From Candidatus Melainabacteria bacterium (lineage in GTDB: Bacteria > Cyanobacteriota > Vampirovibrionia > 2-02-FULL-35-15): a stretch of 64,000 nt of DNA. Position numbers and translations under genes: made by a program. Below, in pieces: positions 16,846 through 39,777 of this stretch. The notes under the pieces are model-generated. The model was not told the origin of the DNA. It ran no database searches and saw only the letters and a program-made list of their open reading frames with translations. The DNA is taken from contig JAHFBF010000001.1 in the NCBI GenBank assembly GCA_023250195.1, forward strand, positions 498,422-562,421, in the 5' to 3' direction. How positions within the stretch are numbered: the stretch's first letter is position 1; each line of letters begins with the position of its first letter.

Positions 16846-16949
16846 AATTTTTTCTTACGCTTCATCGCTGCTACGCAGACGACTCGCTATTTGGCTATCT
16901 CATCTTACGACACTCAGGATTGTCGTTTTCAGACAATCCTTCGCTTAAT

Positions 16950-18260
16950 CTAAATTATTCCTTCTCCTCCTCCACTAAATCCCGGATACGCTTCCATTCC
17001 ATGTTCTGCTATGTCCAAGCCATCCACTTCTGCTCTTTGGGAAACGCGTACACCAATTGTATATTTTAAAATTAACCACACAACCATTGAAACAACTAAT
17101 GTCCATAAAATTACACAACCAACACCAATGAATTGAGAAATTAATTGTTCTATTCCTCCACCAAAAAACAATCCTGGCTTTGGATATGAAACATTTGGAT
17201 AATCATATTGAATAGGAGCACTAAATAAACCAAGTGCAATTGCACCCCAGATGCCCCCTATACCATGAACTGATATTGCTCCTACAGGATCATCAATATG
17301 AAAAATACTGTCCATAATTAAAATAGAAATTACCACCAGGCATCCGGCAATAAATCCAATAATATTTGATGAAATTAAACTTACATAGGCACAGGATGCC
17401 GTACTGGCAACAAGCCCACCAAGAAGTCCATTTATAACCATTGAAAGATCCGGTTTTTTTAATAACATATAAGAAACAAATAAAGCTCCAAGTCCTCCCA
17501 TAATTGCACTGGCATTTGTACAAAGTGCAATGTGAGAATTAAGTTCTGAAGAAAAACCAAAAGTACAACCCAGATTAAACCCAAACCAGCCAAGCCACAA
17601 AATAAAACCCCCTAAAGTAATCATTGGAATTGAATGTCCTAAAATTGCATTTGGGGAAAGATCCTTATTATATTTTCCTACCCGCGGACCAAGAATTATT
17701 ACCCCGGCAAGCGCTGCCATACCACCAACCGTATGAACCATTAAAGAACCGGCGAAATCCCTTACACCCATCTCATATAAAAAACCTCTTCCCAAAATCC
17801 AGTGCCCTATAACAGGATAAATAAAACATGAAAGAAAAAAAGTGAAAATCAAAAACGAAACAAACTTAATCCTTTCTGCAACTGCCCCTGAAACAATTGT
17901 GGCAGTAGTCCCGGCAAATACTACCTGAAAGAAAAAAATAGCCTGCAGTGGAAGTCTAAAATTATCAAGAGGGAAATAAGATGATTTCTCTCCTAATAAA
18001 AATAAATTTTTAAAACTCGGAATGATGCATTCCACGGAAAACATAAGCGCAAAACCAAGAGACCAAAAAGCCAGCGTCGAAATAAAAAAAACAATAAGAT
18101 TTTTGGAGAGCATACTTACTGCATTTTTTGTTCTGCAAAATCCGGTTTCAAGCATTGCAAAGCCACTGTTCATAAAGAAAACAAGCAACCCCATAATTAA
18201 TATCCAGGCTGTATCAAGGGCTGTTTTTAGATTTTGAATATCGTTCATTTGTTGAAGCAA
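16950..18260 (-). CDS. amtB: Ammonium transporter
   Basis: About 11 TM helices with Amt/MEP motifs (FAGTTATIVSGAVAERIKF, DFAGSLMVHTVGG, DPVGAISVHGIGGIWG). Confidence 0.95.
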   Translation of the reverse strand: MLQQMNDIQNLKTALDTAWILIMGLLVFFMNSGFAMLETGFCRTKNAVSMLSKNLIVFFISTLAFWSLGFALMFSVECIIPSFKNLFLLGEKSSYFPLDNFRLPLQAIFFFQVVFAGTTATIVSGAVAERIKFVSFLIFTFFLSCFIYPVIGHWILGRGFLYEMGVRDFAGSLMVHTVGGMAALAGVIILGPRVGKYNKDLSPNAILGHSIPMITLGGFILWLGWFGFNLGCTFGFSSELNSHIALCTNASAIMGGLGALFVSYMLLKKPDLSMVINGLLGGLVASTASCAYVSLISSNIIGFIAGCLVVISILIMDSIFHIDDPVGAISVHGIGGIWGAIALGLFSAPIQYDYPNVSYPKPGLFFGGGIEQLISQFIGVGCVILWTLVVSMVVWLILKYTIGVRVSQRAEVDGLDIAEHGMEAYPGFSGGGEGII

Positions 18261-18274
18261 TTCATGAATTGCCT

Positions 18275-18622
18275 TTACTTCTTTCCAAGCGCTGCAACAC
18301 CTATTTCATTTGTTCTTATACGAATAGCCTGCTCTACATTTAACACAAATATCTTTCCGTCGCCAAGTTCATTCGTTCTTGCTGCCTCAGTTATTATGTT
18401 TATAACCTTATCCAGATCATCATCATCTACAACAACTTTTATTTCTACCTTATCAAGAAGATCAATTTTATATTCACTTCCTCTATAACGCTCTACAATT
18501 CCTTTCTGGCTACCGCGTCCTTTTACAGCAATGACTGTTATTCCACTGAACCCACCTTCATTTAGTGCATCTTTAATCGCAGCCAGCCTGTTTGGTCTGA
18601 CTATTGCTATGATCATTTTCAT
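18275..18622 (-). CDS. glnB: Nitrogen regulatory protein P-II
   Basis: MKMIIAIVRPNRL...GITVIAVKGRGSQKG...YRGSEY (T-loop)...GDGKIFV. 115 aa, directly upstream of amtB. Confidence 0.95.
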   Translation of the reverse strand: MKMIIAIVRPNRLAAIKDALNEGGFSGITVIAVKGRGSQKGIVERYRGSEYKIDLLDKVEIKVVVDDDDLDKVINIITEAARTNELGDGKIFVLNVEQAIRIRTNEIGVAALGKK

Positions 18623-18639
18623 AATTTATTTACTCCAAT

Positions 18640-20538
18640 TTAATAAGTATAATTAGTTAATTTTACTCCTGAGCGATCTAGATAATCAAGCTCTATCTCT
18701 TCATGCTCACTCCATCCTTTAGAAGAAAGCAAAATATTCAACACCCCTTTACTCGAATCCAGAAAAACAATATCCGATTTAAAATCATTATCTATATCTG
18801 CAGAAAATATTTGTCCGGATAAATTGCTGTCTATTTGAATTTCAGGATTTAAGTTGTTTAAACTACTAGAATAAAATTTAAATTTTTTCTCAAGTAAATT
18901 AATAAAGCCTGGATCGGCAATAGTATCACCATCAAAATCTCCGGTTATTGGTACTAAGCTGTTTTTCGATATTATGTCTCCCAAGTTAATCTCTATTTCT
19001 TTAGAATCAGAAGATCGTTTTATAACAAACATATTCCTTTCAGGATCATAAATTGCAAAGTCATCTATATTATCACCATCATAATCACCAATTTGCGGTA
19101 TTCCTTTAGAGGTAACTTGCTTACTAAGGCTAATCAAATTAATGTTTTCTGGAGAAGATTTACCTAAAAAGCGAATATAGAATGTTTTAGATTTAGGTCT
19201 ATAAACTCCTATATCAGTAATATTATCACTATTGAAATTACCGATAAATGGCTTATCACACTCAAGACCAATAGGCAAAGCAAACTTCAGCCCTAATCTA
19301 CTTGAATCACACTTAAATACATTTGTATCTTTTGTCCACAAACAACAATCATTAACATAATCCCCATCAAAATCAGAAACAAAAGGAAAAGCATTATAGC
19401 TATTGTCCCATTTAAAATATTTTAACTTCTTATCATTTAAATTTTTGCTTATAAAACCACTTTTATTATAAAGCCATAAGACCAACTCATTCCCATAACC
19501 AACTACTGAACCTTTATTTAACTTATTTGTTAGAAGAAATTTCTGCAGAATAAAATTATTAACAGGAAAAGAATTGGTAATTTCAGAAAAGTGAAAAACC
19601 TTTTTCTTAAAAGAATCCTCCTTCAAATCAAAAGTTATAAGAACTTTTGAAGAGGCGTTCCAAAAAGCCAACTCACTTGCACCATCTCCATAATAATCAG
19701 CTTGCAAAGGAATAAAACTATCTTTACCAAGTTCTTTTTGGATCTTAGCTGTAATTTTCGGAGAAATTGGTCTTTGAAGTGTTGTAAGTATGACTTTTAT
19801 GGAATTGTCTTTAAAATTCCATACACACAAATCAGCTTTCCCGTCTCCATCATAATCAGAAGGTATTGGCAGAAATGAACTATCTCCAAGTTGCATTTCA
19901 TTAATTCTATTTTCTCTGGATAATTTAATGGTCCAAATGCCATTGTTTAAATTGTAAACAGCAAAATCACTTATTCCATCACCATCATAGTCCTTAACCA
20001 CAGGAATGTTTATGCCATTTCCAAGCTTAAAATTTATAACTCCTTTAGTTGAACTTAAAATTCCTTGAAAGGTATTAGTTTTTGATCTGTAAGTAACAAA
20101 GTCAAATTTGGTATCACCATCAAAATCTCCTACAATTGGTAAATCTCCAGCCTGCCCAAATTTAAAGTTAAAAACATTCTGCTTGGTCTTTATAATCCAC
20201 TCACCTTGACCTCTATAAATTCCATAGTCTAAAAAACTATCGTCATCAAAATATCCTACAAATGGGAAATCATTAATATCTCCAAAAGTAGACTTTAAAT
20301 AGTTGTTATTTTTAAAAGAGAGAGTTTCAAAAAAACAAGGTTCTAAAAATTTATTAAGCTTGGACATCGATGAAGTATTCCAAAAAATCAGGTCTGACCT
20401 TTTATCATCATCAATATCAAATGAATTATTGAGTTTATAGCTGGGCGAATTCACTGAAAGCAAACTGCTTTTATCATTGAAGCAGCCAAATAAAAAAAGA
20501 CTAAAGAAACAAAATAAAAAAAAGTTTTGAATCTTCAT
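18640..20538 (-). CDS. FG-GAP/VCBS repeat beta-propeller protein, exported (possible lipoprotein)
   Basis: Signal peptide ending LFLFGC. Many repeats of the Ca-binding-like motif D[YF]DGD[GT]xxD (DFDGDTKFD, DYDGDGISD, DYDGDGKAD, DFDGDYVND, DYDGDNIDD, DFDGDTIAD). Confidence 0.85.
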   Translation of the reverse strand: MKIQNFFLFCFFSLFLFGCFNDKSSLLSVNSPSYKLNNSFDIDDDKRSDLIFWNTSSMSKLNKFLEPCFFETLSFKNNNYLKSTFGDINDFPFVGYFDDDSFLDYGIYRGQGEWIIKTKQNVFNFKFGQAGDLPIVGDFDGDTKFDFVTYRSKTNTFQGILSSTKGVINFKLGNGINIPVVKDYDGDGISDFAVYNLNNGIWTIKLSRENRINEMQLGDSSFLPIPSDYDGDGKADLCVWNFKDNSIKVILTTLQRPISPKITAKIQKELGKDSFIPLQADYYGDGASELAFWNASSKVLITFDLKEDSFKKKVFHFSEITNSFPVNNFILQKFLLTNKLNKGSVVGYGNELVLWLYNKSGFISKNLNDKKLKYFKWDNSYNAFPFVSDFDGDYVNDCCLWTKDTNVFKCDSSRLGLKFALPIGLECDKPFIGNFNSDNITDIGVYRPKSKTFYIRFLGKSSPENINLISLSKQVTSKGIPQIGDYDGDNIDDFAIYDPERNMFVIKRSSDSKEIEINLGDIISKNSLVPITGDFDGDTIADPGFINLLEKKFKFYSSSLNNLNPEIQIDSNLSGQIFSADIDNDFKSDIVFLDSSKGVLNILLSSKGWSEHEEIELDYLDRSGVKLTNYTY

Positions 20539-20541
20539 ATT

Positions 20542-21516
20542 CTATTCATTTCTCTGTAATACTGAAATTGCAGAAACACAGTTACCCGGAACATTCCATT
20601 GATAGGAAAAAAGTTCCTGTTTTTTAAAGTTTAAAACATTCCATTTCTTTACACCTGGATCCCATGTAATAAGCTCAGGAATGCCATCTCCATCTATATC
20701 ACCTGAAGCTGGTATATCATTAACACCACCAAACTTTATTTCATTCTGGCTTCCATCTTTTGCATATTTAAAATACCATGTCTGATTAGATTTTCTCCAT
20801 AAAACAAGATCACATTTACCGTCACCATCATAATCATTAGGAACAATTATGTCCCATTCTTTGCCATGCTGGATGTGTTCAGTTTGATTGAAATTAAAAC
20901 TTGTGGTTGATTTAACTATATGCCAGACCCCATCATCAGGTCTCCAAACAATAAGATCTGATTTGCCATCTCCATCATAATCACCCGTAAAAGCAGAGTC
21001 CTGATATGAACCTTCATAAATTATCTTTGGAACTTTTCCTCCAGCCTCGCTGATATTGCTTAAATACCATCCACCTGCATTTGGCCTCCAAATACCTACA
21101 TCATAGCTTTTATCACCATCTATGTTACTTGGAATAGGCAAATCTCCTATACTCCCAACAAACATTTTCTTTGGGACTCCAACTCCACTTGTTAAATATA
21201 GAACCCACTCTCCGGAATCAGGCTGAAAAAATGTAAAATCTGTTTTTCCATCACCATCATAATCAGCAAAAACGGGTTGATAGGAAAGATTATTATCAAA
21301 AAATTGTTTCTCATAAAACTTACGATCTGAGGTTAATTGAAAATATAATTTGTTTGAATTTGAATCCCATACAGCTAAATCAGTTAATTTATCACCATCA
21401 AAATCACAACTGTAATATGACAGTGATGCAAATACTACTAACTTATCTTTCGTAAAATCAGTTAACCACATAGGAATAACAAACAAAAGCATACTCAGTA
21501 TGGCTGGGATCTTCAT
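20542..21516 (-). CDS. FG-GAP/VCBS repeat protein, exported
   Basis: N-terminal hydrophobic segment. Motifs DFDGDKLTD, DYDGDGKTD, DYDGDGKSD, DYDGDGKCD and DIDGDGIPE, each followed by W-containing strands. Confidence 0.85.
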   Translation of the reverse strand: MKIPAILSMLLFVIPMWLTDFTKDKLVVFASLSYYSCDFDGDKLTDLAVWDSNSNKLYFQLTSDRKFYEKQFFDNNLSYQPVFADYDGDGKTDFTFFQPDSGEWVLYLTSGVGVPKKMFVGSIGDLPIPSNIDGDKSYDVGIWRPNAGGWYLSNISEAGGKVPKIIYEGSYQDSAFTGDYDGDGKSDLIVWRPDDGVWHIVKSTTSFNFNQTEHIQHGKEWDIIVPNDYDGDGKCDLVLWRKSNQTWYFKYAKDGSQNEIKFGGVNDIPASGDIDGDGIPELITWDPGVKKWNVLNFKKQELFSYQWNVPGNCVSAISVLQRNE

Positions 21517-23348
21517 GGCACTAAAACCTCCACAGGAGAGGTATCTTTTGCAGGAATTTCCTGTTCTTTTTTAACAGCTGGAGGCTTCTTTCCCTGGAAA
21601 AAACTTGACAGCAAAAGAAGATATACAGCTAAAGCAGCAATACTAATATAAGCAGCCGCCTTTCTCACAGGAGTATGTTCAAATTTAATTTTTATTTGAT
21701 GTTTACCCGGCGGCACACGGAACATAATTAGACCAATCTTTGGTTCCATATTAACTTGAGTTTGGTTTTCATCAATATATACATTCCAACCGGGAAAATA
21801 AAAATTTCTTAGACTGATAAAATGTTCTCCCTGAGAAAAAACCTGAAACTCTCTTTCATGTGAAAGCCACTTTAAAAGAGTTATATCACAGGAAGGATCT
21901 GAAGAATTAATTGTTGGAGAAAAATCACGTCTAAAGTCAATTTGTTTCCAGTTTGGATTATTTGTTAAGTTGGGTCTGTATTCTTCATTTGGCCATAAAA
22001 CGTATAATCCGGCTTTCATAAGACTTTGTTCCGGTACCCATCTCCATTTATACATATTAATAAAATCAACATAAGCCAACCCTGCAAAAAGAAATGCAAT
22101 TGAAGCAAAAATGAACTTATACCCTGATAAATTAATTTTCTCTTTAGCAAGACAACCAACCAGATCAAAAGTGTAAACCATAATTACAGCACCAAATGGA
22201 ACAATAAACGTTGTAAACCTCCACGGGAATTGAATTGTCTGCATTGGTTTAATCATATGCCAAATAAAAAGAGATATTGGCGTCATCATTAAAAATGAAA
22301 TTACAAACATTGAAATTGCAATGTTGACTCTAAATGGTTCCTGAAAATATTGTTTAATCTTTCCTGTATTTAAGGACAAAACAACAATGCAAATTAGTAC
22401 TGCCAAGCCAAAGAGAGCATTACTCATTTCATAATATCTGTGATCAAAGATTGCCCAGGCAAAACCATCATCTCTATGTCTATCTAAATAAGTGTATAAA
22501 AAGTTTTTTGAAAAATCCCAGAGAGGCCCCTGTGTTAAAACTTCATCAGTATGAACAAATTTCTTTTCCAGGCATGCAGGAAATAAATAAAATCCGGCAA
22601 GAGAAGCACCCATTGCAAAGCTCAGAAGAATATTTTTTACAAACTTTTTTGTTCTGTGGAAATATAAATTAAACAAACAATAAGGGACAGCAAGCAGAGT
22701 GAAAACAAATGCAGTCGCCAAATGTGTCAAAGCTATTGCAGCATAACCAACCGAAATAATTAAAAATGATTTAAAATCAAAATCTTTATTTTTATCAAAT
22801 ATATCAATTCCATAATAAGTCAAAAATACAAATGCAACCGCCAGAGTACTGGTAGGCCAATTAGTGTTATAGATAAATATATGAATTGCCGGGGAAAAAA
22901 CCACAAATGCCATTGCAATTGAAGTTGAAAAGGCAGAGCCATGCCTTCTTAAATATAAATAACCAAACACAGAACAAAGAATCATTGGAATAACAAAAGT
23001 CCATTTAATGGCAAGGACTATATTCCTTAAAATCAAATCAAGTAAAATAAAAATATAATAAACAAGCGGAGCATAATAATTAAATATTGGAAGACCGGCA
23101 CCATTTACATCAGCATCAATCCATCTTGGCAGCCATTGCCCCTGCCAGAAGCATCTTTTAAAGTTATATGCATGTTCAATATGAATATGCCAGTCAGCAT
23201 GACTCGGAATCCCCTTACCAAAAATAATCGGAGCTGCTGAAAGAATCGTTAAAAGAGCAACAAAAAATATTCTTTCACTTCTTGATCCCAAGAAATGATA
23301 TGCTGAGCCTTTCTCCTCAGGTTTTTCTTGTATCTCATCAGCTTCCAA
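21513..23348 (-). CDS. Polytopic membrane protein, GT-C-like (YfhO / PTPS-related membrane glycosyltransferase type)
   Basis: At least 12 predicted TM helices. N-terminal loop HADWHIHIEHAYNF...WLPRWIDADVNGAGLPIFNYYAPLVYY. C-terminal soluble module FYFPGWNVYIDENQ...VPPGKHQIKIKF is typical of the YfhO/PTPS-related family. Confidence 0.7.
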   Translation of the reverse strand: MEADEIQEKPEEKGSAYHFLGSRSERIFFVALLTILSAAPIIFGKGIPSHADWHIHIEHAYNFKRCFWQGQWLPRWIDADVNGAGLPIFNYYAPLVYYIFILLDLILRNIVLAIKWTFVIPMILCSVFGYLYLRRHGSAFSTSIAMAFVVFSPAIHIFIYNTNWPTSTLAVAFVFLTYYGIDIFDKNKDFDFKSFLIISVGYAAIALTHLATAFVFTLLAVPYCLFNLYFHRTKKFVKNILLSFAMGASLAGFYLFPACLEKKFVHTDEVLTQGPLWDFSKNFLYTYLDRHRDDGFAWAIFDHRYYEMSNALFGLAVLICIVVLSLNTGKIKQYFQEPFRVNIAISMFVISFLMMTPISLFIWHMIKPMQTIQFPWRFTTFIVPFGAVIMVYTFDLVGCLAKEKINLSGYKFIFASIAFLFAGLAYVDFINMYKWRWVPEQSLMKAGLYVLWPNEEYRPNLTNNPNWKQIDFRRDFSPTINSSDPSCDITLLKWLSHEREFQVFSQGEHFISLRNFYFPGWNVYIDENQTQVNMEPKIGLIMFRVPPGKHQIKIKFEHTPVRKAAAYISIAALAVYLLLLSSFFQGKKPPAVKKEQEIPAKDTSPVEVLVP

Positions 23349-23355
23349 TTTTTTA

Positions 23356-24135
23356 CTACCCCTTTATTCCTGAATCTGTAATATTATACTTATAAAGAAA
23401 CCGTATTTTTAAAACCTCAACTAGCATTTTTACAGAATCTCTAAAAATATTAACCTTTGAGCCCTCAATATGATACCAGTTTATAGGGACTTCTTTAATC
23501 TTGTAACCAAATTTTTTTAAAAGAAACAGATATTCAATATCAAAGGAGAATCCAAAGCATTTTTGATTTTCTGCTAATTTTTTAGCAGCATCCATTCTAA
23601 ATAATTTAAAGCCGCACTGGGTATCTTTCAGAGAAGCAAGACCTAAAATGCTTAAAACTAAATGAAAGACTCTTCCTGTAAGTCTCCTTGTAAATGACAT
23701 GGAAACTTTTGTATCTTTGTCTTTTATTACCCTTGATCCAATTGCAGCATCGTAATCAGATTTTATAGCCTCTAGCAATTTTTGTACTTCATTAATTGGT
23801 GCAGCACCATCTGCATCTGTATATAAAACAATTGAATTTGAAGCCTTTAAAAACCCCAGGTTTACTGCATAACCTTTCCCCCTATTAGGCATATAACCAG
23901 TTAATTGAAAACATTTTTTATTTTTGCTTTCATTTTGAATCCAGCCATTTACCACCCCTGACGTATTGTCAGTACTTCCATCATTTACAATTATTACTTG
24001 GAATAAATCCGGCTTGGAAATTTTACTTATATAACTATCGATATCATTTAAGGCTTTTGTAATTCTGCTTGATTCATTAAATGCAGGAATAATAATAGTA
24101 ATGGAGCTGCTTAATTTATGATTCAAATTTCTCAC
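23356..24135 (-). CDS. GT2 polyprenyl-phosphate glycosyltransferase (DPM1/Alg5/CsbB-like)
   Basis: IIIPAFNES...IVNDGSTDNT...YTDADGA...QCGFKLF. Short (259 aa) soluble GT-A. Confidence 0.85.
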   Translation of the reverse strand: MRNLNHKLSSSITIIIPAFNESSRITKALNDIDSYISKISKPDLFQVIIVNDGSTDNTSGVVNGWIQNESKNKKCFQLTGYMPNRGKGYAVNLGFLKASNSIVLYTDADGAAPINEVQKLLEAIKSDYDAAIGSRVIKDKDTKVSMSFTRRLTGRVFHLVLSILGLASLKDTQCGFKLFRMDAAKKLAENQKCFGFSFDIEYLFLLKKFGYKIKEVPINWYHIEGSKVNIFRDSVKMLVEVLKIRFLYKYNITDSGIKG

Positions 24136-25707
24136 CTAGCTCTTTCCTGGTTTGTCATTAGAAACAATCTTAGAACCAAGAAAAACTTCTTTATATGCAT
24201 ATTGATCACTTGATTGAAGAACTCCACAAACTTCAGTCTCAGGATTGTAAAATATTAAATCTGCCATAAAATCCAGATCTAAATCACCTGCTAATGGAAT
24301 ACCTTCAATTCTATTGTCTAATATATTGTTAACTGGTAACCCAAGATTTGATGAAAAGTAATTAAGTATCATAGAGGAAAAATCTATTCCGCCAAAATCA
24401 CATTTACCATCTCCGTCAAAATCAGCAATCAACGGTTCTCCCCCAAAATCATTATTCAAGAAGGCTTCAGTCATCGTACTAGACAATAAAACTTTTAATG
24501 ACTTTCTGTCTGCACCTAAAGTAAAAGAATCATTAACAAAATCACCATCAAAATCACACTTTAAATTGTCTGATTTGTTTGCCAAGCTTGACGTTACAAA
24601 GCTTTTAAGATACTCAAGTGACCCGCTCAAAGGATTTCTTAATAAAAACTTTCTCAGCAAATAATATTCAACAGGTAAAGAGTTGGAAGATATACTTACT
24701 TTATAGTTTTCATAATTTATATCATTCCCGACAATATTAAACACATGGAGTAATTTGTTCTCATTTTCCCAAAAAGTAATTTCAGATTTGCCATCACCAT
24801 TGTAATCTGAAGAAACCGGGAAGCATTTAATTCCTTTAAGCCTTGCTTCTACTTCAGAACATAGTTTTTCTGAGAGTTTTTTGCTAAACTTCGAAAAATT
24901 TATCTTACAATTATTATTTCTATAATTCCATACTGCTAAATCAGCTTTTCCATCACCATCATAATCACTTGGTATTGGCAAATAATCAGATCCACCAAGA
25001 TTAAAATCTCTCGTTAAACCATCTTTGGAAGATCTTACTATCCATATACCACCTATTTGTCTGTAAGAAGAAAGATCAGCCCATCCATCTCCGTCATAAT
25101 CCATTGGCACAGGAATATCACCCGTTATACCCAAATGAATTTCAAGAAGCTTATTTCCATTAGACAGGTAACCATAAAACCCACTATTTCTTGGTCTGTA
25201 AATAACAAAATCACATTTTTTATCACCGTCATAATCACTAGGAACAGGTAAATCTCCTGATTCCCCAAATCTATGCCCAAAACCAACCATAGATAATCCA
25301 TCAATTAAATACCATTCATTCCCATCCCGAAGAAATTTATAAACCCCATAGTCAGAATTACCGTCACCATTAAAATCTCCATAAATAGGGATATTTCCAA
25401 CTTCTCCTACTTGTGAAATCTGATAGTTTATATTTTGTGGACTAATCGCCTCAAAGAAACAACTTTTAGGTAGCTTATTTTTATCTCCAAATAAATTAGA
25501 AAAGTTCCAAACTATGAAGTCAGATTTACCATCACCATTTATATCTATTAAACTATTGATCTTGTTGCTTAGTTTATTGTCCCCAATAGATAACAAAGGA
25601 GACTGAGAACAACCATTTTGAAGAAAAACAAAAATCAAAAATATTGAGCAAAATATTCCAATCCTATATTTACTACTTATTTTTAACTTTTTAAAACAAA
25701 TAACCAT
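24136..25707 (-). CDS. FG-GAP/VCBS repeat protein, exported (possible lipoprotein)
   Basis: Signal peptide followed by Cys (FLQNGCSQ). Motifs DINGDGKSD, DFNGDGNSD, DYDGDKKCD, DYDGDGWAD, DYDGDGKAD, DYNGDGKSE, DFDGDGKCD. Confidence 0.85.
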   Translation of the reverse strand: MVICFKKLKISSKYRIGIFCSIFLIFVFLQNGCSQSPLLSIGDNKLSNKINSLIDINGDGKSDFIVWNFSNLFGDKNKLPKSCFFEAISPQNINYQISQVGEVGNIPIYGDFNGDGNSDYGVYKFLRDGNEWYLIDGLSMVGFGHRFGESGDLPVPSDYDGDKKCDFVIYRPRNSGFYGYLSNGNKLLEIHLGITGDIPVPMDYDGDGWADLSSYRQIGGIWIVRSSKDGLTRDFNLGGSDYLPIPSDYDGDGKADLAVWNYRNNNCKINFSKFSKKLSEKLCSEVEARLKGIKCFPVSSDYNGDGKSEITFWENENKLLHVFNIVGNDINYENYKVSISSNSLPVEYYLLRKFLLRNPLSGSLEYLKSFVTSSLANKSDNLKCDFDGDFVNDSFTLGADRKSLKVLLSSTMTEAFLNNDFGGEPLIADFDGDGKCDFGGIDFSSMILNYFSSNLGLPVNNILDNRIEGIPLAGDLDLDFMADLIFYNPETEVCGVLQSSDQYAYKEVFLGSKIVSNDKPGKS

Positions 25708-25867
25708 ATAGTATTAACTACATAAAGACTAAAAATATACAATAGGAGAACATCGTTAGTAACATCAAACATTCTAACGTAAAAATTAAAACAGGAGTTT
25801 ACTCATCTTTATAAAAAGACTTTTGTAATAATGGACAGTCAAGTATTTAGTTTCGGAGGATTTTAAT

Positions 25868-28800
25868 ATGTTGCAAATCATATTTGCACTGCTTATTTGT
25901 TTTACTTTAGGTTTCTTCCTTTGGTTTACTGGTCAAGTAATTATCAAACAACTTAAGGTGTATGAAGAAAATAAAATGCTTAATTTTTTATTAAGCATTT
26001 CTATAGGAATTTCTCTATATTTAATCACAACAAATTTATTTGGTTGTATTTTAAAAGATTTTAATATTGGGGGGATAACTTCAACAATATTAATCTCAGC
26101 AATTTTGATTTGGAAAAGAAATGATCTAAAAGAAGTTTGTATGAATTTAAAAAAATATACAAACAAGGATAACTTATTGATCTTTTTCAAAGGAAGTACT
26201 GATAAATATTTTTGGATTTTACTTGCAACCATCAATTTAATATATGGATTAACTGCCTTCACCTCTACAAAGCTAGATCACTCTGGACAGGGAAACACAC
26301 ATATATTCAATATTAATCAGTTAATTAATAATATTTACCCTCCAAAACTTTCATCATTACCAAATATTGATCTTAAATATCACTATGGTGCAGATATTCT
26401 TTCAGCACTAATTTCCAAATTAAGCAGGGTCCATCCGGAGATTTCTCTTGATCTTCTTACAATTTTATTCTTAAATCTCAGTTTTTTAACAATCTATTCT
26501 TTGTCAGTTAAATTTTTAAATACCAACCGAGTAAACAAATATTTAATCCCATTCATAGCTTTCCTCGGATGGGGACCTGTAACATCTTTATTCAAAAAAA
26601 ATTCAGTTGATGAAGTAATCCCAGGAAAACTCTTGGAAAAAATACAATATTTAACCCAATCAAGACTTTTAGATTCAGCAAACTGGTCAGGAACAGTGTT
26701 TCATTGGTTTTTTTCACCCTCAATCGGCTTTGGCACATTCTTCTTTTTGATAGCTCTATATTTAATTTATAGATTTATTGAAAAACCAGAACAAAGTATA
26801 GGTTTCATTTGTCTTTTAGGGATTTTTCTAAGTAGCTTTGTAATTATTGACTTTTCAAAGTTAATAATATTACTTGGCGGAACAATTACTTATATTGCTC
26901 TAACTTATAATCCAATTCCTTTAGATGATTCAAAAAACAAAATAACAACTTTTGAAAGCAAAGTCTTTTTAAGAAATTTCGGCATTATTCTCCTCATAGT
27001 ATTTATTTTCGGGTTTATTCATGGTAATTATTTAATATTAAATAATGTTTATGTTTCACTTTTTGAGTTTTATAAATTTGGCAAATCAAATATTGACAAC
27101 AAATTCAGTCCCTTATCCTGCAACACTATTCTTTTAGCTGTTTTTATATTCGGCTTTTATAAGGCTTACAAAGAGAAGCAAAATTGGGTAAGGTTTTTAA
27201 TCCCTTATTTTGCATTTACTATGATTATTCCTTATTTCATAACAATACCTAATGCTGGTTCTGGAAGAATCTTTATGGCAGGGAACATTCTTGGCGCTTT
27301 TTCTTTTCCACTCGTTATTGATTTCATAAAAAACAGACTTAAAATTACAGATAAAAAATTAACCATATTTTACATCTTTGTTTTTACCATCTTTGTTTTT
27401 AGTACCATAATGTTTTTCTTTTTTGGCGATAAAGATAAGCCTAATTTTACTTATAATGGACAAACTTTAAAATATACAGGGATCCAGCAGCTTCAAATGA
27501 CTGCAGTTGCTGATAATTCTGAAAAAATCCCATTTTCAGCATATTTAAAATCCAAGGGCTCAAGAAATCAAAAAATTCTAATAGAGCGAGAGTATGCTCA
27601 AAATATTTCAAACTATTCAGGATTAGGAACTTTTGTACCATCACAAAATATTGTTGACGACATTATAAAAAAGACTTTCACTGAAAATCTTGAATCTGGC
27701 TATACGAAGTCTTTTTCTCTTGATAAAAAATTCTTTGTTGACAATAAAATTAATTGGATTTATTTAACTCCTAAAATGTTTAGATTTTTCTTACCACCTC
27801 AAGCAAAAATGAGACTTCTAAATGTCTATTTAAATAAGGGTGTGATTTCTACTCAATCTAACAAAAAATCCCCGGGAGAGTTAATAGAATTACTTCAAAT
27901 TAATCCTTCTTCTCTTTCTGAAGGTTGTTGGGGTAAAACTGTCAACAATCAAGATTCTACATATATTAAACAAATTGCTGATTGTCCGTATTTTGGTATT
28001 TATAACGCAATGTCAAATGACTTTGACGGAGACAAGATATCCGATATTGCATTTTATGATCAGTTAGGCAAAAAATGGCACATAGTCTATGGTAAGAATC
28101 AAGAAGAATCTGAAATAGATCTTGCAAGTAATCTATTATCAAATTTTACTGCCTCTGATTTATTCATACCAATCCCTTCAGATTATGACGGAGATGGAAA
28201 AACCGACATAGCACTTTTTAATAAATCCTTATCAACTTGGAATGTACTGTATTCATCAAATTCTATGGTGGATAATAAGAGAGGATGCATAGGAACAGAT
28301 GAAATCGTTTTGCCATGTGACCTTGATGGTGATTCAAAGACAGATATTTCATGTTATGGATTTGATAGCAATAATTGGCCTGCTCTATTAAGCAGCTCTA
28401 ACTGGGGTTATAAAAGTCTGAGCCCAAATGATAAGCCAACTTTATTAGATATAAACATTACTTCAGATATAGATGGAGATAAAAAATCTGACTATATTTC
28501 TTTTAACCCTGTACAAGCAACTTTCTATATATATCTATCAACTAAAAATTATAATCCTCCTGCAATAATTAAATCTGGTGAAATAACATCTAGAGTAATA
28601 ATAGAAGACTTTGATGGAGATAAAAATTTCGATATTTCTACATGGACACCAGAAACAGGTAATTGGGAAATAATCCTTGCAAAAGACATCCTGGCTAACT
28701 ATAGACCTGATAATAGTATTCAACTTGTAGGCTGTGGAATTACAAACACTATAAATCCAGATCTTAATCCCCTAAAGTGTTCCAGTTATACCGTTATGAT

Positions 28801-28975
28801 TGGTAGTAATTCTGATATCCCTATGCCAGGAGATTACAATGGCGATGGTAAAGCAGAAATCGCGATTTATCATCCTGATAAGGCAGAGCTTGAAATTGTT
28901 TATGGTCAAAACAATAAGAAAATTGATCTCTCGAAATATAGAGGACTAATTCCTGCAAGCTTTATTGGAATCTAA
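25868..28975 (+). CDS. Fusion protein: N-terminal polytopic (GT-C-like) membrane domain + C-terminal FG-GAP/VCBS propeller
   Basis: The first ~520 aa are multi-TM (about 13 hydrophobic helices). The C-terminal ~330 aa carry DFDGDKISD, DYDGDGKTD, DLDGDSKTD, DIDGDKKSD, DFDGDKNFD and DYNGDGKAE. Confidence 0.8.
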   Translation: MLQIIFALLICFTLGFFLWFTGQVIIKQLKVYEENKMLNFLLSISIGISLYLITTNLFGCILKDFNIGGITSTILISAILIWKRNDLKEVCMNLKKYTNKDNLLIFFKGSTDKYFWILLATINLIYGLTAFTSTKLDHSGQGNTHIFNINQLINNIYPPKLSSLPNIDLKYHYGADILSALISKLSRVHPEISLDLLTILFLNLSFLTIYSLSVKFLNTNRVNKYLIPFIAFLGWGPVTSLFKKNSVDEVIPGKLLEKIQYLTQSRLLDSANWSGTVFHWFFSPSIGFGTFFFLIALYLIYRFIEKPEQSIGFICLLGIFLSSFVIIDFSKLIILLGGTITYIALTYNPIPLDDSKNKITTFESKVFLRNFGIILLIVFIFGFIHGNYLILNNVYVSLFEFYKFGKSNIDNKFSPLSCNTILLAVFIFGFYKAYKEKQNWVRFLIPYFAFTMIIPYFITIPNAGSGRIFMAGNILGAFSFPLVIDFIKNRLKITDKKLTIFYIFVFTIFVFSTIMFFFFGDKDKPNFTYNGQTLKYTGIQQLQMTAVADNSEKIPFSAYLKSKGSRNQKILIEREYAQNISNYSGLGTFVPSQNIVDDIIKKTFTENLESGYTKSFSLDKKFFVDNKINWIYLTPKMFRFFLPPQAKMRLLNVYLNKGVISTQSNKKSPGELIELLQINPSSLSEGCWGKTVNNQDSTYIKQIADCPYFGIYNAMSNDFDGDKISDIAFYDQLGKKWHIVYGKNQEESEIDLASNLLSNFTASDLFIPIPSDYDGDGKTDIALFNKSLSTWNVLYSSNSMVDNKRGCIGTDEIVLPCDLDGDSKTDISCYGFDSNNWPALLSSSNWGYKSLSPNDKPTLLDINITSDIDGDKKSDYISFNPVQATFYIYLSTKNYNPPAIIKSGEITSRVIIEDFDGDKNFDISTWTPETGNWEIILAKDILANYRPDNSIQLVGCGITNTINPDLNPLKCSSYTVMIGSNSDIPMPGDYNGDGKAEIAIYHPDKAELEIVYGQNNKKIDLSKYRGLIPASFIGI

Positions 28976-28982
28976 TTATCAA

Positions 28983-30668
28983 ATGCAAGAAAAAAGTGTT
29001 ATTCTAAACTTAGTAGTTTCTTACATTAAAAAATATGGTCTTATTTCAGCTATTTTCCTTTTAGCACCATATTATGTTTTAACTCCACTATTCAAATTCC
29101 AAACATGGCATAGTGCTCATGACTCAACTGGAACTATAGTAGCTGCTTGGAGTATAGTAAAAACTCTTCGAGAAGATTTACATTTCCCGGTTGTATGGTT
29201 TCCTGACGACTTTGTTTTTAATGGCAGTCCATTTTGGGGATTTTATCAACCGCTTTCATATTTAATCGTTTATATAATGTCTCTTATCACTTCAAACTTT
29301 GATAAAAATTATATTTTTTCTGCACTTAAAGCCGCTGTATATTTATCATTTTTAATCTCTGAATTAGGAATGTTCCTATTAATAAGAACAATACTTAAAC
29401 AATCTTCAATTAAAAATATTATAGGAGTGTTTGGAGGACTGTTATATCTTTTGTCCCCTTACAGATTTATTGATCTATATTCCCGTAGTGCATATTCGGA
29501 ATTATGGGTATTCGCCTGGATACCTTTTTATTTTCTAGGATTTTATCAATTACTTTTTCATAAAGAGCCAAAAGCTTCAATACTAATTTCACTTTCAGTC
29601 ATTTTTCTATTTGCAAGTCACTTTATGCCATCTTTGTTTTTTGTAATATTTATGAACTTGGGATTCCTTATTTTTTTAATCTTAAAAAGAAATTTATTTG
29701 CCTTTATAAATGAGAATCCTAAACTTATTCTTTACTGGGCAGTTTCTCATTTCATTGGATTCCTTTTCTCCTGTTTTTATCTCATACCTGCAATGCTTAA
29801 TATAAAGTATGTAGTCGGTGACATTACTGGTTTTGAAAGAATAAATTTAGCTCATGTACTAGAACATGTAAGTTGGTGTTTTGGCATGTTGGATTTAACT
29901 AACTTTAATGGTCCATGGCAAGTGGGTCAAATTTTTTTATTGGGTGTAATTGCTTTCAATTTTTACCTTTTAAGTAACAAAAATCAAAAATTTAGAGAGC
30001 TGTTGGTTTTTTTAAATATCTTAATAATGATTAATTTTTTATTTTTAATGAGCAAGACTTTATGGGGTATTTTACCTAAACCATTGTACGCACTACAATT
30101 TTCTTGGCGCTTGTTTTTAGTTTACTCATTTATTGCTTCTCTTATAATTTCATTATTCGTATATGAGATAAAACTGAAAGTTCATTTTCTAATCATACTT
30201 CTTGCAATGCATTTTTACACAGGTTATCGCTTTCTCTATTATGGACAAGGTGATGTAGTAGCTCAATATTTTAATGTTGAGTCTTGGATAAATGACATTT
30301 ACAAAAAAAGCTTCGTAACTAGCATAGGTGGAATAGCTTACTCGTTATTACCAAAGACTCATTCACCAACTTTATTTAATTATGTAAATCAAACTCAGTT
30401 AGGAAATAATGAAAAATACTCAAACACATCTCTTTTAGATTTAAAGCCTGGAGTTAATATCAATTATTTCAATCGTAAAGGGAATACTTACAAATATGAG
30501 TTTCTAAGTGAAAGACCCTTTTTTATTATTTTTAAACAGTATTTTTATCCTTCATGGAAATTATATATTGATTCAAAGGAGTCTAAAAATATTTATCTTA
30601 CCAATTATGGTTTTATAGGATTTGAGGTTGCTCAAGGCAGGCATTCTGTCACAATAAAAACTAACTGA
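28983..30668 (+). CDS. Polytopic membrane protein, GT-C-like (YfhO/PTPS-related type), paralog of 21513-23348
   Basis: WHSAHDSTG...FPVVWFPDDFVFNGSPFWGFYQPLSYL loop, many TM helices, and a C-terminal YFYPSWKLYIDSKE...VAQGRHSVTIK module. ATG at 28983 is preferred over the TTG at 28965. Confidence 0.7.
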   Translation: MQEKSVILNLVVSYIKKYGLISAIFLLAPYYVLTPLFKFQTWHSAHDSTGTIVAAWSIVKTLREDLHFPVVWFPDDFVFNGSPFWGFYQPLSYLIVYIMSLITSNFDKNYIFSALKAAVYLSFLISELGMFLLIRTILKQSSIKNIIGVFGGLLYLLSPYRFIDLYSRSAYSELWVFAWIPFYFLGFYQLLFHKEPKASILISLSVIFLFASHFMPSLFFVIFMNLGFLIFLILKRNLFAFINENPKLILYWAVSHFIGFLFSCFYLIPAMLNIKYVVGDITGFERINLAHVLEHVSWCFGMLDLTNFNGPWQVGQIFLLGVIAFNFYLLSNKNQKFRELLVFLNILIMINFLFLMSKTLWGILPKPLYALQFSWRLFLVYSFIASLIISLFVYEIKLKVHFLIILLAMHFYTGYRFLYYGQGDVVAQYFNVESWINDIYKKSFVTSIGGIAYSLLPKTHSPTLFNYVNQTQLGNNEKYSNTSLLDLKPGVNINYFNRKGNTYKYEFLSERPFFIIFKQYFYPSWKLYIDSKESKNIYLTNYGFIGFEVAQGRHSVTIKTN

Positions 30669-30681
30669 CATAATTAATAAT

Positions 30682-31668
30682 ATGACTCAAAGTTACTCAA
30701 AAGAATCTGTTAAGCCTTCAATTAAATTAGAAACTGTTAGTTGTTGCTTATGTAACTCTACAGAATCCAGCATTATTTCTGAAGGTACAGACTATGAATA
30801 TGAAAGTATTCCCGGAACATTTACTTTCCACAAGTGCAAGAAATGTAATCATTTATATTTAAATCCAAGACCAACCTTATCTTCCGCATCATTGTTATAT
30901 CCTGAAGATTATAAATATCCTCCAATTCCAGAACCTAAAAATAATTTGTTAGGTAAAGTTCATTTCCTAACTAAAATTATAAATAAGATAACGTTAAACA
31001 GAATTGGAAAAATTTTAAACTCGGTTCCAAATAATGGAACTGTCTTGGAAGTTGGGTTTGGAGAAGGAGAAACACTGGCACTTATTAAAAAAGCCAGAAA
31101 AGATTGCTGTGTAATAGGAGTTGATATTAAAATTGATAATAAAGTTAAAGCTTTTTTAGAGAAACAAGGCATTACAGCCAAAGAGAGCCCTTTTGAAGAT
31201 TTTGTTTCTCATCCAGATACTATTGATTTAATAATAATGACTCAAGTAATAGAACATTTCTGGAATTTACAGGATTGTATAAAGAAAGTCAGGGAAATAC
31301 TTAAGCCGGGAGGAATAGTAGTTGTAGCAACTCCCAATGGAGCTGGTTATGATAGAAAGTTATGGGCTGATGGGTGCTGGGGAGGATTTTATTGGCCTAG
31401 GCATTTGAATATTTTTACACCAGAATCACTAACAAAATTATTCAACGATAACAAACTGGAAAAAGTAAAAATTCAATTCCTCCTTTCTCCAGTTGGCTGG
31501 GGACAATCAATTCGCAATAAACTAAAAAGTAATGGGCATAAAAATCTTGCAAAAATAATTAATCCATTTAGCCCTGTACTTCTTTCAATTTTCACCATAA
31601 TGGAAATTTGTGCATTAATTCTTGGCTTACAGACTTCCAACATGCAAGCAATATTTCAAAAAAAATAA
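30682..31668 (+). CDS. Class I SAM-dependent methyltransferase with an N-terminal Cys4 zinc ribbon and a C-terminal hydrophobic tail
   Basis: CCLCNS...HKCKKCNH, then SAM motif I VLEVGFGEGE, then VVATPN. The C-terminal LLSIFTIMEICALILGL is hydrophobic. Confidence 0.8.
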   Translation: MTQSYSKESVKPSIKLETVSCCLCNSTESSIISEGTDYEYESIPGTFTFHKCKKCNHLYLNPRPTLSSASLLYPEDYKYPPIPEPKNNLLGKVHFLTKIINKITLNRIGKILNSVPNNGTVLEVGFGEGETLALIKKARKDCCVIGVDIKIDNKVKAFLEKQGITAKESPFEDFVSHPDTIDLIIMTQVIEHFWNLQDCIKKVREILKPGGIVVVATPNGAGYDRKLWADGCWGGFYWPRHLNIFTPESLTKLFNDNKLEKVKIQFLLSPVGWGQSIRNKLKSNGHKNLAKIINPFSPVLLSIFTIMEICALILGLQTSNMQAIFQKK

Positions 31669-31689: not shown

Positions 31690-33042
31690 TTACGATACAG
31701 CAAAACAACTTTCTACTTCTATCGTAAATAAAAGATAAATTTGCACAATAATCCCAACAAACATAGCTTTAATCAATATATTGGATAAAATAGATTTTTG
31801 CTCTATAGAATTAATATACAAAACAGCCCAGCAAACCCATGTCCAGCAAATATAACGATATTCCATATTACGATGTGGAAGTGTAGGAAAAATCGGAATA
31901 GATACTATCTGGAAGAGATGAATAATAAGAAGCATTAAAAATGAAAGTTTTGAGATATTCGATTTAAAAGCAAATTTTAAAGCGATTAAATAAGCAATCA
32001 AATGGGTAAAAAATATAATCCAAGTAAACATAACATTTGGAACATTAAATAAATACTCACCAATTACAGAAGTAACAAATGAAACTGAGAAATAATCATA
32101 TCTCTTGGTTGATGGATGAACTGTGTACCACCAGGGATGTAGCCAGGGCTCATCCCATTCATGAGTATAATCAACTTTATTTATTTGCCAACTAGGAATT
32201 CTAAGTACTAGACCAACAAGATTTTTTACTTGTACTACATCAAATTTTGTAGTATCCATCTCCCCATTAAAACTAGTTGATAGTAATCTTCCTGTATTTT
32301 TATAATTGTGAAAATATAAATAAGGTGATAAGAGAACTAAAGAAAGAATCAGTATACTTATAATTCGAGTTTGAACAAGATTAGGCAGTTTTAATTTTAG
32401 TAAATTTTTTAGACAAATTAAAGCAACCGCAGCAATTGGAAATAAAACTGTATACTTTGTATAAAGCCCTAGAGTAGACACACTAAGTAAGGCAAGAGCT
32501 AAAGAGTTATTCCATTTGGTATACAGTCTGTAACTGAGCACTACAATGGCTGTAGATAATAAAGTTGTTAAAGAATCATTTGAATAAGTGCTAAAAACAA
32601 AAATAAATTTTGGCGTAGTACAAATAAACATTAATACCAGTGCTTGTAGTATTTGATTCTGAGACACTTGAGAAAGAATCCATGCAATAATTAACAACTC
32701 TATTAATCCATATAGTACTGATACGCCCCTGCCATAGTTAACATGCGTTATTTTATCTTTCTCTACTTCTGACTTTAAATCAGGTACATCAATAAAACTA
32801 TTAATTAAATAGTAAAGTGGGGGTTGCCAGGTTTCATATCCAGCGTATGGGTGTGGCAACTTATTCATTTGTGCAATATATCTCGTATATTCAAAATGAG
32901 CTCCCATATCATGAGCTCTACAATAATGTGGAGTACGTAAACAATAACCAGTTATAACCAAAAGCCAAAGGAGTATAACTGGTATCAGAAATTTGTTTTT
33001 AAAAAGATTATTGAAGAAATTTGTCATTTGAAAAAATAACAT
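31690..33042 (-). CDS. Polytopic membrane protein, GT-C-like (PMT/ArnT-type)
   Basis: About 11 TM helices. The first loop AHDMGAHFEYTRYI...YETWQPPLYYL resembles the Asp-containing loop and PPLYY motif of the GT39/GT83 families. Confidence 0.65.
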   Translation of the reverse strand: MLFFQMTNFFNNLFKNKFLIPVILLWLLVITGYCLRTPHYCRAHDMGAHFEYTRYIAQMNKLPHPYAGYETWQPPLYYLINSFIDVPDLKSEVEKDKITHVNYGRGVSVLYGLIELLIIAWILSQVSQNQILQALVLMFICTTPKFIFVFSTYSNDSLTTLLSTAIVVLSYRLYTKWNNSLALALLSVSTLGLYTKYTVLFPIAAVALICLKNLLKLKLPNLVQTRIISILILSLVLLSPYLYFHNYKNTGRLLSTSFNGEMDTTKFDVVQVKNLVGLVLRIPSWQINKVDYTHEWDEPWLHPWWYTVHPSTKRYDYFSVSFVTSVIGEYLFNVPNVMFTWIIFFTHLIAYLIALKFAFKSNISKLSFLMLLIIHLFQIVSIPIFPTLPHRNMEYRYICWTWVCWAVLYINSIEQKSILSNILIKAMFVGIIVQIYLLFTIEVESCFAVS

Positions 33043-39165: not shown

Positions 39166-39777
39166 TTATTTTACAACACAGCTAAATAAATTTAGTCCAA
39201 ATTTATGATACTCCATACGAATTTTACTAGGCTTAAATCCTGCTTTTACTAATAAAGGCCACAAATCTTTTTTATCATAATACATCTTATGATCATCCAT
39301 TTCTTCTTTAGGGCTTAGTCCAAACCTAAAAGCTGAAATCTCAAGAAAGTACTTCCCTAACCATGTTGGCACATTAATAATTAATACTCCATCTTCTTTT
39401 AAAAGTTGGTAAGAGTCTTTCAAAGCAGCCAAAGGATTATCAAAGTGTTCTAAAACAGAGTTCATTAAAATTAAATTGAATGCATTTGGCACAGTTTTTT
39501 TTAATGCTGATTCAACAGATTCTTCAATGAAATTTAGATTTTCAATTTTTTTTAATCTGTCTGAAATTGAAACATCAATACCCGTACCACTTTCTATATA
39601 CGGAATAAGTGAGAAAAGAAGCCTAGCATCATATCCACATCCAATATCAAGACAAAAAATTGGCTTTTTAATTTGATTTATTATAGCTTTAATTTTTATC
39701 AATGATAAATAACCACCAAGCTTGTCTACAATGCTTAATTTATGTTCTTCTCCATATGATTTTTTTCTATTTGTCAT
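39166..39777 (-). CDS. Class I SAM-dependent methyltransferase
   Basis: CLDIGCGYD (motif I), LILMNSVLEHF, GVLIINVP. Confidence 0.8.
   Translation of the reverse strand: MTNRKKSYGEEHKLSIVDKLGGYLSLIKIKAIINQIKKPIFCLDIGCGYDARLLFSLIPYIESGTGIDVSISDRLKKIENLNFIEESVESALKKTVPNAFNLILMNSVLEHFDNPLAALKDSYQLLKEDGVLIINVPTWLGKYFLEISAFRFGLSPKEEMDDHKMYYDKKDLWPLLVKAGFKPSKIRMEYHKFGLNLFSCVVK

Follow-up and report, generated by a model that had tools for sequence, protein, structure and literature searches.

We describe here a predicted membrane protein in which a GT-C-like transmembrane domain and an FG-GAP beta-propeller are encoded as one polypeptide. Its gene lies within a 64,000-nucleotide stretch of a Candidatus Melainabacteria genome (contig JAHFBF010000001.1, positions 498,422 to 562,421; the window, in whose numbering all positions are given), and its open reading frame (ORF) is organized as a membrane domain (residues 1-520), an alpha/beta domain (residues 521-705) and an FG-GAP/VCBS propeller (residues 706-1035), with coordinates as listed in Table 1. 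An earlier sequence-only reading of this stretch had proposed a single polypeptide joining a GT-C-like domain of about 13 hydrophobic helices to a propeller with six calcium-loop motifs. The analyses described below bear out that description in its essentials, and add the 185-residue alpha/beta domain between the two parts, which was absent from the earlier reading.

The evidence that the two parts belong to one protein comes both from independent assemblies and from homologues. The target sequence was found in four groundwater-metagenome runs, and in two independent runs the interval 25700-29100 is spanned by single contigs (one of 15.3 kb at 25x depth, the other of 20.4 kb at 17x) with no differences, no gaps and no joints. 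In the protein database the identical protein is present on three contigs, together with 34 other full-length homologues from Melainabacteria that are 1009-1051 residues long and 37-54% identical over 99-100% coverage; where these are named, they are labelled 'VCBS repeat-containing protein [Candidatus Melainabacteria bacterium]'. The homologues keep an uninterrupted ORF of like length, and conservation spans the membrane part, the linker domain and the propeller. Because the run contigs are identical and the 34 homologues are conserved through all three parts, the target is a genuine single polypeptide that is under selection. The alternative is that a membrane gene and a separate propeller gene have been joined only by a chimeric contig, or by the frameshift or misassembly that the sequence-only reading had itself raised; we found nothing in its favour, and the run-level assemblies without indels or joints, the three contigs with the identical protein, the single ORFs of the homologues and the conservation of the linker domain all speak against it, so that the chance of an artefact is negligible and we regard this origin as ruled out. 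In run X4, a contig at 3x depth has 239 bases of the last propeller blade (28671-28911) swapped for 173 others, and this variant probably comes from a related but divergent strain living in the same aquifer. The search for the same architecture in other genomes that had been proposed in the earlier reading returns the 34 Melainabacteria homologues and six more distant relatives, which are described below.

The membrane domain belongs to a small sequence family for which there is no Pfam or NCBIfam model. Neither database gave a match to the target, and a scan of the 35 family members at E<=5 gave nothing consistent, with DUF2298 at 0.018 in a single member; a PDB sequence search and a profile search (E<=10) were also without a match. 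Hydropathy analysis (Kyte-Doolittle) identifies 12-13 hydrophobic segments between residues 2 and 518 and none past residue 520, which is close to the number given in the sequence-only reading, and AlphaFold2 predicts 14 membrane-length helices, within the GT-C norm of 8 to 14 or more. The full-length AlphaFold2 model, made from the 35-sequence alignment, has a predicted local distance difference test score (pLDDT) of 85 and a predicted template modelling score of 0.78, and a second model of residues 1-705 has a pLDDT of 80. When this second model was compared with the PDB using Foldseek, the top 24 matches were all GT-C enzymes, 17 of them with E < 3e-3; they include STT3, PglB, AglB, DPY19, AftA, ArnT, EmbB, AftD and Pmt1/2, the best being STT3 (8age_A, 2.1e-5) and PglB (5ogl_A, 2.5e-5). 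A search with the whole protein recovers the same GT-C families. On these models the membrane domain has the GT-C fold that the sequence-only reading had supposed, and because the template modelling scores (TM-scores) are modest our assignment extends to the fold class but to no subfamily. An oligosaccharyltransferase identity was considered and is ruled out, as WWD or WW[DE]xG is found in none of the 35 family members.

Conservation in the membrane domain points to one loop in particular. A 57-residue loop (residues 133-189) follows predicted helix 4, with D195 opening the next helix, and this region carries a signature (H145, P158-P159, P165, Y171-H172-Y173-G174, D176 and D195) that is invariant or nearly so in the family. 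None of the 35 members departs from D195, D328 or N387, and 34 of them have D176. In an alignment of 78 distant relatives (in which the residue numbering is offset by +1) conservation is 86-100% for H145, P158, P159, P165, Y171, H172, Y173, G174 and D195, and 67% for D176. The 57-residue loop of the target model resembles the first extracytoplasmic loop of GT-C enzymes in having two short helices, and we consider residues 133-195 to be a candidate active-site loop, with candidate catalytic residues there and at D328.

The distant relatives place the target in a broader context. In an exhaustive profile search with residues 1-705 against 1.84 billion cluster representatives, the target family accounts for about 16 full-length representatives, a small number, and about 110 matches are distant. 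These are mostly proteins of about 620 residues without Pfam domains, from metagenome-assembled genomes (MAGs) of Nitrospirota, Planctomycetota, Pseudomonadota and Thermodesulfobacteriota, and the target family sits inside a wider uncharacterised superfamily. Six of the distant relatives, approximately 900-1020 residues long, likewise combine a membrane domain with an FG-GAP domain at the C-terminus, and one of them is in a Deltaproteobacteria MAG, where its neighbours are methyltransferase, YdjC, GT2, epimerase and flavoprotein genes. Because this relative shares the layout, the combination of membrane domain and propeller must predate the Melainabacteria, and it is again tied to glycan genes.

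The predicted helices put the C-terminal domains on the same side of the membrane as three large conserved loops (residues 133-189, 243-283 and 386-414) and the invariant D328. On the other side are short loops rich in lysine and arginine, at residues 83-112 (mean of 5.2 K+R) and 488-497 (mean of 3.3) in the 35 sequences. Helix 1 has no charge before it and K27 and K30 after it, which favours an N-out, C-out orientation. GT-C enzymes have their conserved loops and C-terminal domains outside the cytoplasm, and calcium-binding FG-GAP loops are typical of extracytoplasmic proteins. Because the sides of the loops, the charges around helix 1, the exported paralogues, the secreted homologues and the GT-C convention all agree, we place the propeller outside the cytoplasm with high confidence, in keeping with the sequence-only reading, although this topology is deduced from helix parity, charge bias, exported relatives and precedent. 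The opposite topology, with a cytoplasmic propeller, draws some support from the lysine and arginine residues that are also present in the long loops assigned to the outside, but it would place the K/R-rich loops at 83-112 and 488-497 on the outer face and the conserved GT-C-type loops in the cytoplasm, it runs against the export signals or anchors present on all of the paralogous and homologous propellers as well as the usual location of calcium-binding FG-GAP loops, and we consider it very improbable.

The alpha/beta domain has three invariant residues (Q540, P644 and E674) and gives a weak fold match only, to the C-terminal domain of PglB (3aag; E 1.3, probability 0.41). The propeller matches Pfam FG-GAP_3 at 48.1 bits (cut-off 26.9; E 1.9e-12) and FG-GAP at 37 bits (cut-off 22.1), FG-GAP profile matches are found in all 35 family members, and the members keep four to six of the six predicted calcium loops. 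The six motifs quoted in the sequence-only reading are present in the target exactly as written. Translated in all six frames, the whole window has 25 matches to the strict pattern D.[DN]GD...[DE], and because all 25 are confined to the target and the three stand-alone FG-GAP genes (6+6+5+8), the motif is far from a chance feature. In the AlphaFold2 model each predicted calcium loop lies between the first two strands of its blade, and since there are 24 strands and six motifs, the model indicates a propeller of six four-stranded blades, rather than the seven of integrin alpha or PVL. Judged by target-normalised TM-score, six-bladed designer propellers come closest (0.51-0.57), ahead of seven-bladed PVL and ITFG2 (0.42-0.48), although the blade number, as well as the active-site geometry, rests on secondary structure and Foldseek hit lists. 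By E-value the best propeller match is ITFG2 (9van_B, 5.4e-6), with the PVL lectin (2bwm, 4.2e-5) and TcB (6h6e_F) also among the matches.

The earlier reading had noted the same motifs in stand-alone exported proteins, and this is consistent with their FG-GAP matches and with the N-terminal hydrophobic signal or anchor that each of the three possesses. Residues 716-1033 of the target align over the full length of the 20542-21516 product with 27% identity (E 2e-26), and by this comparison the latter is a free-standing propeller and the closest paralogue of the fused one. Of the loci recovered by a contig scan with the full alignment, which was keyed on the propeller motifs, 79 had the propeller only and one (L003) was full-length. 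In the 77 loci from other phyla the propeller homologues form the C-terminal part of proteins that have at most four predicted hydrophobic segments, in most cases a single N-terminal one; none is on a polytopic protein, and only seven of the 77 have a polytopic neighbour within 2.5 kb, none of them fused. Homologous six-motif FG-GAP modules end secreted proteins in Acidobacteriota and other phyla (loci L004-L082), where they are joined to N-terminal parts that include S8 subtilase, M10 matrixin, DUF5122, SBBP or LVIVD propellers, and a pectinesterase-like domain. The propeller module is a widely reused and promiscuous extracytoplasmic C-terminal unit.

The genes around the target provide the context in which its function can be considered. 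Five minus-strand genes (18640-25707) follow one another closely, separated by 0-7 nt or overlapping by 4 nt, and the target is transcribed divergently from this operon. They include a PTPS_related gene (PF10131, of Pfam's GT-C clan), whose stop overlaps the start of the free propeller gene as ATGA. Gene order was compared in seven genomes, all Melainabacteria: the window, L001-L003 (reached from the target) and L085-L087 (reached independently from the PTPS_related protein). In all seven the fusion gene lies beside a PTPS_related gene that is directly followed by a free propeller gene for a product of about 300-324 residues; the spacing of this last pair varies, from an overlap of 1-4 nt in the window and three other loci to a gap of 71 nt in L086 and L087. 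A small DPMS/ArnC-like GT2 gene is also adjacent in all seven. The two larger stand-alone FG-GAP genes are more variable, that at 24136-25707 having a counterpart in L003 and none in L001 or L002, and that at 18640-20538 having one in L003 only. Downstream, the gene at 28965-30668 overlaps the stop of the target, or starts 7 nt after it if the ATG at 28983 is used; its product is 22% identical to that of 21513-23348, and it is conserved downstream of the target in L003 only.

The GT2 encoded at 23356-24135 has DPMS (5mlz, 2e-13) and then ArnC (9hwj) as its best PDB sequence matches, and its NCBIfam matches (Dol-P hexose transferase, AglJ, PpgS and ArnC) are all below the curated cut-offs. Polyprenyl-phosphate sugar synthases make the donors used by GT-C enzymes, and this GT2 is the likely maker of a lipid-linked donor.

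The sequence-only reading had taken the covalent fusion as the main evidence that the propellers and the membrane enzymes of this region act together, and this argument stands in part. The association of the two gene classes is strengthened by the synteny in seven of seven genomes. However, the membrane domain of the target has no detectable sequence similarity to the PTPS_related proteins: both neighbouring proteins give a probability of <=1% in hhalign, the target has no PF10131 match in Pfam (including the scan of the 35 members), and phmmer searches of the neighbouring membrane proteins against the distant relatives of the target gave no matches. Nor is a propeller fused to any of 75 relatives of the neighbouring PTPS_related protein (two of which match YfhO PF09586 too), and the module itself is promiscuous. 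The fused protein is thus not a fused copy of the split PTPS_related/propeller pair, and because the fused membrane domain has no detectable sequence similarity to its PTPS_related neighbours, the Rosetta-stone argument holds at the level of fold class only.

More broadly, the target is part of an extracytoplasmic-glycosylation island of about 18.6-50.8 kb (18640-50827) that encodes five GT-C-like polytopic proteins and three free propellers, as well as four DPMS/ArnC/AglJ-like GT2s, four methyltransferases, epimerases, two GMC-like oxidoreductases and genes of GDP-heptose type. This gene content suggests that the product is a methylated, heptose-containing glycan.

Several features of the island and its borders are recorded here as observations in their own right. 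P0238 (776 residues), a distant relative of the PTPS_related proteins, is fused to a methyltransferase domain, and its counterpart in the window is the PTPS_related-like gene at 28965-30668, which adjoins a membrane-anchored methyltransferase gene (30682-31668); this is a possible second Rosetta-stone pair in the island. Among the GT2s, the 393-residue product of 39777-40958 (minus strand) has four to five predicted C-terminal membrane helices (residues 238-375) and aligns with ArnC over residues 5-294, and the other three are soluble and about 240-260 residues long. The 518-residue GMC-like flavoprotein encoded at 49271-50827 (plus strand) has an internal 4Fe-4S ferredoxin-type motif at about residues 198-260 (weak NCBIfam matches), and a similar flavoprotein of about 524 residues is encoded near the Deltaproteobacteria relative (L083:1000-2574). 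At the other end, nitrogen-related OCD and Amt genes (15856-18622, minus strand) flank the island in all seven genomes, a fixed linkage, and P-II (GlnB) lies between Amt and the island in six of them, being missing in L086. The adjoining 1496-residue ORF at 11027-15517 (minus strand), for which Pfam gives no match, has three hydrophobic segments in its C-terminal part, and in L001, L002 and L085-L087 a counterpart of 1394-1480 residues is found at the corresponding place next to OCD.

Table 1. Features of the fusion gene, its neighbours and the surrounding island (window coordinates unless a locus is named)
Feature	Position	Strand	Residues	Basis
Whole ORF with TAA stop, predicted three-domain membrane protein	25868..28975	+	1035 aa	ORF read
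Shine-Dalgarno-like GGAGG, ATG 8 nt downstream	25855..25859	+		Read from sequence
Polytopic membrane domain, predicted GT-C fold, 14 predicted helices	25868..27427	+	1-520	AlphaFold2 DSSP, hydropathy, Foldseek
Predicted helices 1-7			2-26, 37-62, 65-82, 113-132, 190-217, 224-242, 284-305	AlphaFold2 DSSP
Predicted helices 8-14			311-327, 329-347, 358-385, 415-435, 439-456, 464-487, 498-519	AlphaFold2 DSSP
Conserved extracytoplasmic loop region, two short helices (145-153, 174-186)	26264..26452	+	133-195	Conservation, AlphaFold2
Alpha/beta middle domain, predicted extracytoplasmic	27428..27982	+	521-705 (185 aa)	AlphaFold2 secondary structure
FG-GAP/VCBS beta-propeller, 24 strands	27983..28972	+	706-1035	Pfam, AlphaFold2, Foldseek
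Calcium-loop motif 1, DFDGDKISD	28019..28045	+	718-726	
Calcium-loop motif 2, DYDGDGKTD	28181..28207	+	772-780	
Calcium-loop motif 3, DLDGDSKTD	28319..28345	+	818-826	
Calcium-loop motif 4, DIDGDKKSD	28466..28492	+	867-875	
Calcium-loop motif 5, DFDGDKNFD	28607..28633	+	914-922	
Calcium-loop motif 6, DYNGDGKAE	28832..28858	+	989-997	
Stand-alone FG-GAP protein, 8 strict motifs, variable neighbour	24136..25707	-	523 aa	Pfam, motif count
Small GT2, polyprenyl-phosphate-sugar-synthase-like, conserved neighbour	23356..24135	-		PDB, NCBIfam
PTPS_related (PF10131) GT-C-like membrane protein, conserved neighbour	21513..23348	-	611 aa	Pfam, 50.8 bits
Free-standing exported FG-GAP propeller, conserved neighbour	20542..21516	-	324 aa	Pfam, alignment
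Stand-alone FG-GAP protein, lipobox-like LFGC, variable neighbour	18640..20538	-	632 aa	Pfam, N-terminus
Second PTPS_related-like membrane protein, downstream of target	28965..30668	+		Pfam, 25.3 bits, just under the 26.4 cut-off
GT-C-like polytopic proteins of the island	21513-23348, 25868-28975, 28965-30668, 31690-33042, 36674-38203			
DPMS/ArnC/AglJ-like GT2s of the island (n=4)	23356, 34059, 39777, 46548			
GDP-heptose-type genes of the island	SIS 47289, HAD 47885, GHMP kinase 42467, NTP-transferase 43512			
Example propeller-module loci in other phyla	L013:7787-10831, L072:8462-10870, L016:1290-4376			

It is well known that GT-C enzymes can carry an extracytoplasmic accessory domain and be encoded in a locus with a polyprenyl-phosphate GT2. 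The closest precedents are the mycobacterial EmbC and AftD and ORF12 of Citrobacter youngae (the founder of GT136), GT-C enzymes with periplasmic acceptor-binding domains, whose carbohydrate-binding modules (CBMs) bind the acceptor polysaccharide (PMC11127046). Like EmbA/B/C, AftD and ORF12, the target has a polytopic GT-C domain with a beta-rich extracytoplasmic domain after the last helix, and lies in a glycan-biosynthesis locus adjoining a polyprenyl-phosphate sugar synthase; like ORF12, its membrane domain resembles no existing GT family in sequence, and only the fold identifies it. It is unlike these enzymes in having a six-bladed calcium-loop FG-GAP propeller and an alpha/beta linker in place of an Ig-like CBM, and in its 14 predicted helices with a conserved loop after helix 4. 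The best structural matches are the GT66 oligosaccharyltransferases STT3, PglB and AglB (E 2e-5 to 1e-3 over 600-758 aligned columns), in which the membrane domain is likewise followed by a C-terminal extracytoplasmic alpha/beta domain, although the target has no detectable sequence similarity to them, lacks WWDxG, gives TM-scores of about 0.3 and has the extra propeller.

Other systems resemble the target in one part or another. The PTPS_related (PF10131)/YfhO-like neighbours belong to the same fold class, are in the same island and are also paired with an FG-GAP propeller, but there the partner is a separate gene, and their sequences have no detectable relationship to the membrane domain of the target. 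The propeller shares its Pfam FG-GAP/FG-GAP_3 matches, its Dx[DN]GDxxx[DE] loops and its fold with the integrin alpha head, ITFG2, PVL and TcB, whereas integrins and PVL have seven blades to the apparent six of the target, which is also covalently joined to a GT-C membrane enzyme. At the level of the locus, three-component extracytoplasmic glycosylation of the GtrA/B/C type combines a polyprenyl-phosphate GT2, a flippase and a GT-C enzyme (PMC11127046). The DPMS/ArnC-like GT2 and GT-C-like membrane genes are similarly clustered and conserved together here, but the island differs in having five GT-C-like genes and propeller proteins, with no flippase identified.

We think it probable that the target is a GT-C enzyme dependent on a polyprenyl-phosphate sugar, with a propeller that binds or positions the acceptor. 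It would be an inner-membrane enzyme whose large conserved loops, alpha/beta domain and propeller all face outside. The neighbouring DPMS/ArnC-like GT2 would load a sugar onto polyprenyl phosphate at the cytoplasmic face, the lipid-linked sugar would be flipped across the membrane, and the GT-C domain would move the sugar onto an envelope glycan or glycoprotein, with H145, Y171-H172-Y173-G174, D176 and D195 in the loop at residues 133-195, together with D328, as candidate catalytic residues. Support for a polyprenyl-phosphate-linked donor is contextual and comes from the adjacent DPMS/ArnC/AglJ-like GT2 genes. The tethered propeller may bind or position the acceptor by analogy with the CBMs of EmbA/B/C, AftD and GT136 ORF12, and the free propeller encoded directly after the PTPS_related gene could play the same role in trans. 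We note that PVL, an FG-GAP-type lectin, is among the best fold matches of the propeller. Several considerations weigh against this interpretation. The membrane domain has no sequence-level membership in any GT family in the Pfam, NCBIfam and PDB searches, Foldseek comparison with GT-C structures gives modest TM-scores (0.26-0.45) and large root-mean-square deviations, and the candidate catalytic loop follows helix 4, not helix 1 as in canonical GT-C enzymes. Once the flanks of the long loops are included, the charge bias that orients the protein is no more than about two-fold, and no flippase was identified. FG-GAP propellers, such as those of integrins and ITFG2, mediate protein-protein contacts more often than sugar binding, and as related modules sit on many unrelated secreted proteins, acceptor binding is only one option for the propeller.

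These last points bear on a less likely variation in which the target is a GT-C enzyme but its propeller is a module for docking to proteins or the cell wall, and does not bind the acceptor. It might assemble a multi-enzyme periplasmic glycosylation complex, tether the enzyme to outer layers, or recognise a protein substrate, as the TPR domains of TMTC do. Integrin-type FG-GAP domains are classic protein-binding modules, and the best fold match is to ITFG2, a subunit of the KICSTOR complex; the five GT-C-like proteins and three free propellers of the island could form a complex, and in Acidobacteriota and other phyla secreted S8 and M10 peptidases, as well as other propellers, carry the module, as would suit a docking unit of general use. 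However, PVL, a fungal FG-GAP-type propeller that scores nearly as well as ITFG2, is a lectin, and the periplasmic beta-rich accessory domains of EmbC, AftD and GT136 ORF12 bind glycan acceptors (PMC11127046), and we regard a docking role as a tentative and rather unlikely alternative. It is more doubtful still that the protein has a GT-C-like fold without being a glycosyltransferase of the usual kind, acting instead as a polymerase- or ligase-type enzyme, a transporter of lipid-linked intermediates or a non-catalytic scaffold for the propeller. Such a role would accommodate the lack of a known GT family by sequence and of a canonical first-loop aspartate directly after helix 1, the absence of the oligosaccharyltransferase motif WWDxG in 35 of 35 members and the low TM-scores, but every significant structural match is to a GT-C transferase, polar and acidic residues are invariant on the extracytoplasmic loops, most of them being strongly conserved in distant relatives too, and polyprenyl-phosphate GT2-like genes are conserved neighbours.

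GT-C enzymes are responsible for most extracytoplasmic glycoconjugates, and how they recognise their acceptors is a current question, to which the answers so far include the CBMs of Emb and AftD, the MIR domains of PMT and the TPRs of TMTC. In the literature searched we found no paper on fusions of GT-C domains with FG-GAP or other propellers or on envelope glycosyltransferases of Melainabacteria, and no curated family, solved structure or paper for the GT-C and FG-GAP propeller architecture. If it acts as we propose, the target family would add an unreported solution, an integrin-type calcium propeller on a GT-C enzyme. Because no curated profile detects the membrane domain, such genes are annotated only as 'VCBS repeat-containing' or 'hypothetical'. 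The presence of fused and split versions at a single locus amounts to a natural experiment on propellers as partners of GT-C enzymes.

The host lineage is an uncultured group of groundwater Melainabacteria, the non-photosynthetic sister lineage of Cyanobacteria, in which the locus marks a large and conserved envelope-glycan island. A more speculative proposal, which we advance tentatively as possible but not as likely, is that the target founds a new CAZy-level GT-C family and that calcium-dependent FG-GAP propellers, in fused form or from coupled genes, are dedicated acceptor-recognition subunits of a multi-enzyme periplasmic glycosylation machine that builds a methylated, heptose-containing envelope glycan specific to Melainabacteria. 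If this were true, FG-GAP propellers would constitute a new class of GT-C accessory subunit.

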